A stretch of 64,000 bases of DNA from a virus (taxonomy: Duplodnaviria > Caudoviricetes), in IMG/VR virus record IMGVR_UViG_3300023275_000004, positions 32,001 to 96,000 of that record; one strand, written 5' to 3'. Shown in pieces: positions 2,788 to 41,973 of this stretch (position 1 is the first letter of the stretch; each line of letters starts with the position of its first letter). Under the pieces are notes generated by a model. That model saw only the letters and a program-made list of their open reading frames with translations. It did not search any database and was not told the DNA's origin. Position numbers and translations under genes: made by a program.

Positions 2788-3234
2788 TCACTCCAAGTAC
2801 ATAGGGATGATCGTATAAGGCGTCACCGTGTTATCCGCCTTCCGCATACGTACAGGGCCAGCACTAGGAAGGTAAGCACGCTCAGGAAATATCTCGCCCT
2901 CGATAGGCTCCGCAAATTTCTTAGCAGCAGCTACAGCTGTCTTAAAGCTCATGCTCGCAGCTATCGTGCTCTCGCCCAGCCCCTCAACCTTTTCTATCAC
3001 TAGGAATACACAGGGATTATCTGACTCTATGTTCAGACGTGTATCGTCACCAGGTTCTTTCTTGCGTCTCTTGCCCACATACTTGCCAGGCTTGTCATCG
3101 TTGTTGTAGATGGGCTGATCGTTTGAAAAAGTTTTCTCGGGCACAAAGACCGGGTTAGCCGCGATATTCGCCGAGTTAACGCTGTTGTAAGGCTGGCCGG
3201 ATAACTCACTGGGGTTCTCTGTTACTTGCTTCAT
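2788..3234 (-). CDS. Hypothetical protein
   Basis: 148 aa ORF in operon; inverted repeat downstream at about 2736-2779. Confidence 0.65.
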   Translation of the reverse strand: MKQVTENPSELSGQPYNSVNSANIAANPVFVPEKTFSNDQPIYNNDDKPGKYVGKRRKKEPGDDTRLNIESDNPCVFLVIEKVEGLGESTIAASMSFKTAVAAAKKFAEPIEGEIFPERAYLPSAGPVRMRKADNTVTPYTIIPMYLE

Positions 3235-40858: not shown

Positions 40859-41083
40859 TCAAGTGCCTGTATCATCTCGAACATCTTTCCAAGAAAGCTT
40901 CACTGCTTGACCTAGCTTGTCTGGATAATCTATCACTATATCTGTCTCATGTCCAGCTAGCGCCAGATTGATTTTGATTTTGTCTCCTTGAGCGACAAAT
41001 TTTCTCAAAACCGCCGCTAATACCTGCTCAAGCAAAAGAGCCCGGTCTAAACCGGACTCCTCTACCGACTGCTCCTCAGTCAC
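40859..41083 (-). CDS. Hypothetical protein
   Basis: Coupled ORF. Confidence 0.55.
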   Translation of the reverse strand: MTEEQSVEESGLDRALLLEQVLAAVLRKFVAQGDKIKINLALAGHETDIVIDYPDKLGQAVKLSWKDVRDDTGT

Positions 41084-41535
41084 TTTTTTTCGCCCGCCTT
41101 AACCACATTCCAGATAATTTCTCCGAGAGTGTAGTCTCGGAGAATCCAATTAATTTTACGGTGGTTGAACTTGCTGTCAGGATACTTATCACAGTTGCAC
41201 ACAACATACCCACGAACAACAGTAACCATAGCACCATGACTTGCGAAAGTGCCTGCAAACTCTCCTACCGTATCCATCTCTGGAGTACTCATGACATCAA
41301 GTTTCAAGCCACACTTAGAAATGTGGCTACGAATTTCCTTGGAGTTGTGCCCATAACCGCCGTAGTACTCATACGTACCGCCCTTATCAATAAGGAACTT
41401 CCATACAGCTTCCTTGTAAGGAAGCATGTCGACACGCTTTTCAATGTGAGCGCCACCGTCAGCAGGCATTCCACACTCGTCACAAACCTCAGGAGCAAGC
41501 TCGAAGGGTTTGAACACAGTACAAGACTTAGACAT
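41080..41535 (-). CDS. Cys-rich hypothetical protein
   Basis: GAGGAGG RBS. Confidence 0.7.
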   Translation of the reverse strand: MSKSCTVFKPFELAPEVCDECGMPADGGAHIEKRVDMLPYKEAVWKFLIDKGGTYEYYGGYGHNSKEIRSHISKCGLKLDVMSTPEMDTVGEFAGTFASHGAMVTVVRGYVVCNCDKYPDSKFNHRKINWILRDYTLGEIIWNVVKAGEKK

Positions 41536-41567
41536 TCTACCCTCCTCGGGTTTATTTAAAGATTAAG

Positions 41568-41682
41568 TGCCTCGGCTAAGGAGTTGAACCCTGCAAACCG
41601 CTATCACAAGTTTCTAGAATCTTGTGCTTAAGCACCGGCCGGATACTTAAGACTAGCTGCTCTTCCATTGAGCTATCGAGGC
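41568..41682 (-). ncRNA. tRNA-like RNA with bifurcated anticodon domain
   Basis: Acceptor, D and T arms; GCTA/TAGC stem encloses two hairpins. Confidence 0.75.
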
Positions 41683-41772
41683 GTGCGAGGTAAATTTTCT
41701 CCGTGAACAGTAAGGAACTCTGCCTTAGCCACCCACAGTGCGTGGTCTACCTCGGGTATTTCTATTAAATCG

Positions 41773-41973
41773 TCACTTCATTGTAGCAAGACGAGCCAGG
41801 CCAATCAAGATCACAATCAAGCCCAAGATTAGAATTGGGTTGATCCTGAAGCCTTTACGAGCAGGCTTTGCCACCTTTGGCTTTTCCCACCTACGCCTAG
41901 TTGCGATCAGTGGTGAAGGTGGACGCCTGCCGTTAGGTGGCGGAACGTACCTACCGTCTTTCATAATTGGCAT
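41773..41973 (-). CDS. Small membrane protein
   Basis: Basic N-terminus, C-terminal TM; GGAGG RBS. Confidence 0.65.
   Translation of the reverse strand: MPIMKDGRYVPPPNGRRPPSPLIATRRRWEKPKVAKPARKGFRINPILILGLIVILIGLARLATMK

Follow-up and report, generated by a model that had tools for sequence, protein, structure and literature searches.

A forked tRNA-scaffold RNA without an anticodon arm in a leaf-litter phage and its relatives

Phage tRNA clusters are usually taken to be codon-usage helpers. The DNA analysed here, a stretch of 64,000 nt referred to as the window, is a portion of a 125.6-kb IMG/VR phage record (98% complete), in which ARAGORN called 37 tRNAs, all of them on the minus strand. 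A 115-nt segment on the same strand has the acceptor stem, the D arm and the T arm of a tRNA, and two hairpins where the anticodon arm would stand. The question raised by this locus is whether the segment encodes a tRNA, the remains of one or an RNA of another kind. Comparison with relatives indicated that it is very probably a real, conserved and non-decoding structured RNA, in which the shape of a tRNA has apparently been kept and decoding discarded. The best reading of the sequences is a small, uncatalogued family, which would comprise non-decoding RNAs built on a tRNA scaffold.

Architecture and genomic setting of the 115-nt RNA

The acceptor stem GCCTCG/CGAGGC with its following A, the D arm and the T loop TTCAACT, all proposed in a first-pass annotation of this DNA, were present on the minus strand (Table 1). 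The 4-bp GCTA/TAGC stem enclosing two hairpins was present as well, its helices were kept in homologues, and the MFE fold of the element was exactly the drawing given in that annotation. A single A separated the D arm from the 5' strand of this base stem (P), and a GT linker led from the base stem to hairpin 1. Hairpin 2 adjoined hairpin 1 with no linker and was followed by a single A, the 3' strand TAGC of the base stem and then GGTTT before the T arm. The hairpin loops measured 9-10 nt. The T stem was best drawn as 6 bp with one bulged A, stacked on the 6-bp acceptor to give 12 bp in total; the seventh acceptor pair is either A.C or replaced by an extra T-stem pair. The folding energy of the element was ordinary (z = -1.6), so the case for it rests on comparison with relatives.

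Table 1. Coordinates of the 115-nt RNA, its parts, its neighbours and the related RNAs in other loci. Positions without a locus name refer to the window.
Feature	Position	Strand	Observation
Whole 115-nt tRNA-scaffold RNA	41568..41682	-	G1 to discriminator A73; CM R1 score 149 bits
C74 after A73	41567	-	CCA not encoded
Acceptor stem, 5' strand GCCTCG	41677..41682	-	Partner CGAGGC at 41569-41574; 4/6 pairs with two-sided changes across the family
Linker A7-U8-A9 (three nt)	41674..41676	-	A-U-R in every member (alignment A4)
D arm GCTC-AATGGAA-GAGC, with G18 G19 and A20	41659..41673	-	Stem invariant in 4/4 members; D loop AAYGGAA kept
Base stem P, 5' strand GCTA	41654..41657	-	Partner TAGC at 41600-41603; 2/4 pairs with two-sided changes across the family
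Hairpin 1, stem CTTAAGTA/TGCTTAAG, loop TCCGGCCGG	41627..41651	-	7/8 pairs with two-sided changes across the family
Hairpin 2, stem CACAAG/CTTGTG, loop ATTCTAGAAA	41605..41626	-	CAC...GUG ends invariant; 2/6 pairs with two-sided changes
T arm GCAGGG-TTCAACT-CCTT(A)GC	41575..41594	-	6-bp stem with one bulged A, canonical T loop; 2 pairs with two-sided changes
Upstream structured RNA, closing stem GAGGTAGA/TTTACCTC	41686..41753	-	Conserved in L160 and L162; 3 nt from the 115-nt RNA
Promoter-like site TTGATT-17-TACAAT, extended -10 TG	41780..41808	-	From a consensus scan alone (9/12 matches), which is not evidence of function; inside the end of the 66-aa ORF
66-aa ORF, upstream, same strand	41773..41973	-	Homologue in L162 76% identical
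Terminator-like hairpin before the 66-aa ORF	42064-42043		
151-aa Cys-rich ORF, downstream	41080..41535	-	Starts 33 nt past the 115-nt RNA; anchor by which L160, L162 and L163 were found
Family member	L160:882-998		Nearly identical to the window
Family member	L162:1071-1187		92% identical to the window element, 9 differences in 115 nt
Family member	L157/L158:2773-2884		70%-GC phage contigs; full-length covariance model match
Family member	L168:6437-6548		70%-GC phage; added by pattern scan

Both structured RNAs lay in a same-strand operon between the 66-aa and 151-aa ORFs, downstream of a terminator-plus-promoter pair. The upstream RNA had also been reported in the first-pass annotation, and it was found in a form that more than one drawing fits: RNAalifold gave 24 pairs with only 1 two-sided change, and a cloverleaf-like alternative fitted equally well. 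It may be a tRNA-like RNA that lacks a T arm. Drawn in this way, it has acceptor-like GAGGTAG/TTACCTC, a D-like stem CCAC/GTGG, in which C-to-T changes still stand opposite G, and the stem-loop TAAGG-CAGAGTT-CCTTA. An analogue with the closing stem CTTGACGA/TCGTCAAG was present in the metagenome locus L163. Searches of Pfam and PHROGs with the neighbour proteins of the 115-nt RNA, including the product of the 151-aa ORF, returned no family, and the AlphaFold2 model of the 151-aa protein was too poor to use (pLDDT 44). In L162 (1217-1372) and L163 (809-960), the RNA and the 151-aa gene were separated by a small Cys-rich ORF with a MARM... start, which was absent from the window.

The 3' end of the 115-nt RNA (A73, C74, then T) fitted the pattern of the 37 tRNAs of the phage. 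Nearly all of these tRNA genes finish with N73-C, the next base being G or T, and CCA is encoded by none of them. A search for a CCA-adding enzyme (PF01743) in the phage found none, so the 3' ends of its tRNAs and of the 115-nt RNA would all have to be completed by host enzymes. The 5' half of the element was almost identical to that of Curtobacterium tRNA-Arg(CCU), which is a hint to the host lineage. The source samples were leaf litter and the nearest cultured phage by RecA-like protein was Microbacterium phage Magritte, with 41% identity; together with the tRNA-Arg-like chassis, this fits a host of the Curtobacterium or Microbacterium type. In Curtobacterium genomes (L170-L189), the chromosomal tRNA-Arg(CCU) was followed by a second, partial copy of the T arm and 3' end, an arrangement that looks like integration-site repeats.

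Relatives and covariation

The 151-aa ORF had a handful of relatives, and their alignment led to four metagenome loci, L160, L161, L162 and L163. The gene order of L162 was unchanged, and its neighbouring proteins were 74-78% identical to those of the window. Four of the nine differences between the two elements formed two double compensatory changes, one replacing T-A by C-G in the base stem and the other A-T by T-A in hairpin 1. Two others turned G-U into Watson-Crick pairs, two weakened hairpin 1, and one broke G1-C72, leaving a G1.A72 mismatch. Hairpin 2 was the same in the window and L162, its loop included. No such RNA was found at L161 in the 152 bases upstream of its 151-aa homologue gene. 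At L163, where the 151-aa homologue was 54% identical, a 7/5 tRNA frame was observed in the same position as the element (692-797), upstream of the small Cys-rich ORF and the 151-aa homologue. Its lower domain of ~52 nt is folded differently and was not recognised by the model. Given this differently built lower domain, the exact fork may matter less than the tRNA top half.

The members from the 70%-GC phages (L157/L158 and L168) adopted this layout when folded by themselves, and the MFE fold of the L157 member, computed independently of the covariance model, gave the same architecture. Its upper part comprised a 6-bp acceptor, an A-U-G linker, the D arm, a 3-bp base stem and a G-C linker. Hairpin 1 had a 10-bp stem and a GCGC tetraloop. 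Hairpin 2 followed with no linker before it and an A linker after it, and had 7 bp starting with CAC and ending with GUG. The T stem was a perfect 6 bp (GCGAGG/CCTCGC) with the loop TTCGAGT, followed by A73 and C74. The hairpin 2 loop was reduced to 4 nt (GGCA) in both L157 and L168.

In the comparative set, which holds four distinct sequences from two clades, the distant clade being aligned by fitting to the model, 97.8% of cells were paired compared with 79% in shuffles, and 17 of the 34 pairs had changed on both sides. The covariation score was reached by 0 of 500 shuffles, and sliding the 3' partners by 1-3 columns lowered pairing to 35-45%. The first-pass annotation had staked its drawing on the pairings being kept in homologues, and every helix was indeed kept, with compensatory changes. 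The helices were maintained by such substitutions in phages of 48% and 70% GC, and neither hairpin loop was conserved. Across the family, the 3-4 bp of the base stem led through a 2-nt G-Y linker into hairpin 1 (8-10 bp), which directly adjoined hairpin 2 (6-7 bp), and a 1-nt A linker completed the junction. Base stem P and hairpin 2 together made 10 bp in both lineages. The folding energies of the low-GC members were unremarkable (z of -1.6 and -0.05). The model scores of the distant members, 43-51 bits, were modestly above those of ordinary tRNAs (up to 39 bits), and the likeness of the two clades may, though less probably, be analogy, not homology. A homologue of the window's 290-aa ORF lay 0.8-3.7 kb downstream of every member.

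All databases searched yielded six loci with four distinct sequences, and from these the family of the 115-nt RNA looks rare. More than 100 further IMG/VR loci share the idea of a chassis plus insert, with inserts of other kinds. When some 120 phage tRNA frames from outside the family, with inserts of 50-80 nt, were fetched by pattern and compared with the model, none fitted both hairpins, so the fork layout is specific to this RNA family. The 112 IMG/VR phage loci L042-L153 have a tRNA D arm and T arm 50-80 extra nt apart and include forms with three T arms; a recurrent subgroup (e.g. L043, L048, L061, L112 and L140) shows a hairpin and then ACAGCAA. An Actinoplanes MAG contig (L175:353-483) carried a 131-nt tRNA frame with a two-hairpin fork over the 5-bp stem TTCGA/TCGAA, without sequence similarity to the family. 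No further member was obtained from a scan of viral sequences with the alignment of the 151-aa neighbour, from the last viral pattern scan (13 loci, zero new members) or from model R2 on the whole records L154, L159, L155, Jay2Jay and Magritte. A pattern scan of genome contigs returned nothing but att-site repeats of Curtobacterium tRNA-Arg and insert-bearing frames unrelated to the family. Among cultured phages, DNA similarity searches gave only chance or D-arm matches for the window element and no match for the L157 element, and tblastn with the 151-aa and 290-aa neighbours found no match. Sequencing-run DNA contigs aligned to the element contained no variants, and among the runs listed for the stretch none was an RNA run.

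The complete 62.7-kb phage G005 keeps the family RNA and has no canonical tRNA, which argues that the RNA is not just debris of a tRNA array.

Other insert-bearing tRNA frames were observed in these phages. G005 has two of them, a 152-nt RNA directly behind the family member and a tRNA-Gly-like gene with a 20-nt insert. In L157, the 152-nt RNA immediately behind the member (2885-3036) combines a tRNA acceptor, D arm and T arm with a multi-hairpin insert of ~95 nt. The gene at L158:1404-1498, which is the same in L157, is tRNA-Gly(GCC)-like (RF00005, 39 bits). Its 20-nt insert after position 37 repeats ATGCCA and has a small hairpin inside.

Decoding, processing and mimicry as possible roles

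A canonical anticodon arm, with a 5-bp stem and a 7-nt loop of U33, anticodon and purine 37, was absent from the element, and a three-way junction stood in its place. The element was not called by ARAGORN with default settings or by Rfam, whose tRNA family stayed below its gathering threshold of 29 bits over 41400-41900, with no match even at E ≤ 10. The L162 and L157 members had no Rfam match at E ≤ 0.01. That the RNA is a decoding tRNA, either an amber or CUAG suppressor reading through the hairpin 2 loop or a tRNA-Leu(UAA) spliced from an intron, is hardly tenable. When introns were allowed, ARAGORN did draw a tRNA-Leu(taa), which needed a 26-nt intron, left the anticodon stem mismatched and had 20 nt in its variable region, and at low threshold it drew a 4-base anticodon, ctag; the identity of the loop ATTCTAGAAA in the window and L162 would also suit decoding. 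The intron model was rejected, as L162 breaks its anticodon stem CTAGT/TCTAG and instead shows covariation of GCTA/TAGC, and as the former stem cannot be aligned in L157 or L168. The amber anticodon, which the first-pass annotation had raised as an outside chance, was rejected as well: in the window the 10-nt loop caps a stacked stem of 10 bp, in the distant members only 4 nt are left of it, and no TAG recoding signal was found in the phage, where TAG ends 9 of 75 long ORFs. The same annotation was right in dismissing introns of known type. The ~41 extra nt are too short for a group I intron and gave no Rfam group I match, and no 3-nt bulges flank a 4-bp helix as in a bulge-helix-bulge motif. 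When spliced and unspliced forms were compared in silico over the aligned family, no contiguous deletion yielded a canonical anticodon arm common to the members, and neither RtcB nor an RNA ligase was found to be encoded by the phage. The helices of the fork are kept by compensation and the loops vary freely, which leaves the RNA without an anticodon and without an intron that could be removed to make one. Judged from sequence, the 115-nt RNA almost certainly cannot read codons, and the decoding reading appears already close to refuted. Equally little speaks for a decaying tRNA pseudogene, or a tRNA broken by an inserted fragment, without selected function, which is most improbable. Rejection by the standard tRNA finders and Rfam and the unexceptional folding energy would agree with such an origin, but the identity to L162 exceeds the 74-78% of the neighbouring proteins, the substitutions are concentrated at compensatory positions, and distant phages keep the same architecture.

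The preferred reading as a whole, a non-decoding tRNA-scaffold RNA that is cut out by host tRNA-processing enzymes and acts as a tRNA mimic, is evenly poised between being right and wrong. Its parts differ in strength. Maturation by tRNA-processing enzymes is likely, since the same-strand operon and the 3-nt packing behind a tRNA-like RNA resemble the arrangement of the phage's real tRNAs and suggest excision by host tRNA enzymes. Host RNase P and 3'-end enzymes would probably excise the RNA, and the host CCA-adding enzyme would probably complete its 3' end. A role as mimic or decoy is proposed more tentatively. The excised RNA would act through its shape, its tRNA top half being recognised by some tRNA-binding protein, and the forked lower half would bar it from the decoding site of the ribosome and may have a binding partner of its own. 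Of its possible uses, the likeliest would be to tie up or divert a host enzyme that acts on tRNA, for instance a defence nuclease that cleaves tRNA or a processing enzyme.

An alternative, which we consider unlikely, is that the fold only punctuates an mRNA, as an RNase P or RNase Z cleavage signal between the 66-aa and 151-aa cistrons, and that the released RNA has no function. It would account for the position between two same-strand ORFs, with a terminator and a promoter only upstream of the 66-aa ORF, and for a sequence conservation that is limited to the top half, the part needed by RNase P; L163, with another kind of lower half in this place, keeps this alternative alive. However, RNase P needs no anticodon domain, yet hairpins 1 and 2 were kept by compensation across GC contents, the junction layout was kept with them (linkers of 2, 0 and 1 nt, CAC...GUG ends), and a full D arm with A20 was retained. 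The invariant junction geometry, with the 10 bp of P and hairpin 2 in both clades, suggests that the fork is more than filler and favours binding or a decoy over a pure cleavage signal. Punctuation and mimicry are compatible and not mutually exclusive. Quite improbable is an aminoacylated carrier, which would be charged by an anticodon-ignoring host synthetase and would donate its amino acid outside decoding or tie up EF-Tu or the synthetase. The intact 12-bp acceptor/T helix, A73 and C74 as in real tRNAs, and an A20-bearing chassis like that of tRNA-Arg in Microbacteriaceae and their phages are consistent with charging, and L157 has G3.U70 and A73, the alanine identity set. Against this, arginyl-tRNA synthetase depends on C35 of the anticodon, and alanine identity was rejected because G3.U70 occurs in L157 only, the window and L162 having C3-G70 and L168 having G3-C70. 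L162 also has the 1-72 mismatch, and no identity set is common to the members.

The mimic reading can be carried further, to a version that we regard as doubtful. The fork would then be a purpose-built platform of a counter-defence decoy, in which the top half would lure a host tRNA-targeting nuclease or a tRNA-sensing immune protein and the junction would block cleavage or lock the enzyme. If this were true, the RNA would represent a new kind of RNA-based anti-defence, and the other lower domain of L163 and the many chassis-plus-insert variants would be traces of an arms race. If such RNAs bind tRNA-directed host enzymes in any way, they would bear on how phages cope with tRNA-cleaving defences.

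Comparison with known tRNA-like RNAs

No Rfam family matched any tested family member, and no description of the fork architecture was found in the literature searched. A catalogue of structured RNAs from IMG/VR published in 2023 mentions tRNA-like candidates in general terms only (PMC10690425). Because tRNA finders do not see such RNAs and Rfam does not list them, annotation misses them. The element combines an intact tRNA top half with a structured lower domain that is not an anticodon arm, conserved among phages, and was on this basis classed as a scaffold RNA.

With canonical tRNA (RF00005), the element shares the 12-bp acceptor/T helix, the D arm with G18 G19 and A20, a T loop of the form TTCRANT, U8, A14, A73 and C74. 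The elbow nucleotides (G18 G19; T54 T55 C56) are present, the D arm and T loop being conserved in all members. CCA is not encoded, as in the phage's own tRNAs, and the T loop matches that of the tRNA-Arg(CCG) of Microbacterium phage Magritte. The element differs in a three-way junction of ~58 nt in place of the 5-bp/7-nt anticodon arm, and in an acceptor/T split of 6/6 with A7 looped out, whereas the canonical split is 7/5. Non-canonical cloverleaf tRNAs (8/4, 9/3 and allo-tRNAs) were found in phage tRNA clusters and soil metagenomes, and a role as regulatory non-coding RNA was proposed for some of them (Mukai et al. 2017, PMC5389517). They too retain a 12-bp acceptor branch with an unusual division, but keep the anticodon arm and are read as tRNAs, whereas in the element, divided 6/6 (or 8/4 with a bulge), the arm is gone. 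The conserved 6/6 division is a small addition to these architectures.

The tRNA-like domain of tmRNA likewise has a tRNA top half without an anticodon. It differs in its G3.U70 alanine identity, its reduced D arm and its long lower helix, whereas the element is forked; ARAGORN -m found nothing in the element and RF00023 gave no match. YrlA-type Y RNAs (RF02553), reportedly set out by Chen et al. in 2014, are said to be circularly permuted relative to tRNA, with ends that fall within the 'anticodon' stem and a loop that caps the acceptor. They resemble the element in having a T arm, a D arm and an acceptor-like stem in a non-decoding RNA, actinophages included. The element has normal tRNA topology in contrast, with free ends forming the acceptor stem, and it had no match to RF02553, for which the positive control from Streptomyces phage Jay2Jay scored 39.8 bits. 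This control sequence (L002:1440-1558) lies in an unannotated gap after tRNA-Ile and is itself a YrlA-like permuted RNA in which the 3' half precedes the 5' half and the acceptor is loop-closed; its score (E = 9e-6) is below the gathering score. Intron-containing tRNAs, whether archaeal with bulge-helix-bulge motifs or bacterial with group I introns, also carry extra sequence in the anticodon region. The element differs from both in the length and structure of its 41 extra nt, and no excision restores the arm in any member. Phage T4 encodes the small structured RNAs species 1 (RNAC) and species 2 (RNAD), of obscure role, which are co-transcribed and processed with the phage tRNAs. The element is likened to them by description, T4 being unrelated to this phage. 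Among anticodon-less tRNA-shaped RNAs, the fork architecture and the 6/6 acceptor/T split are new.
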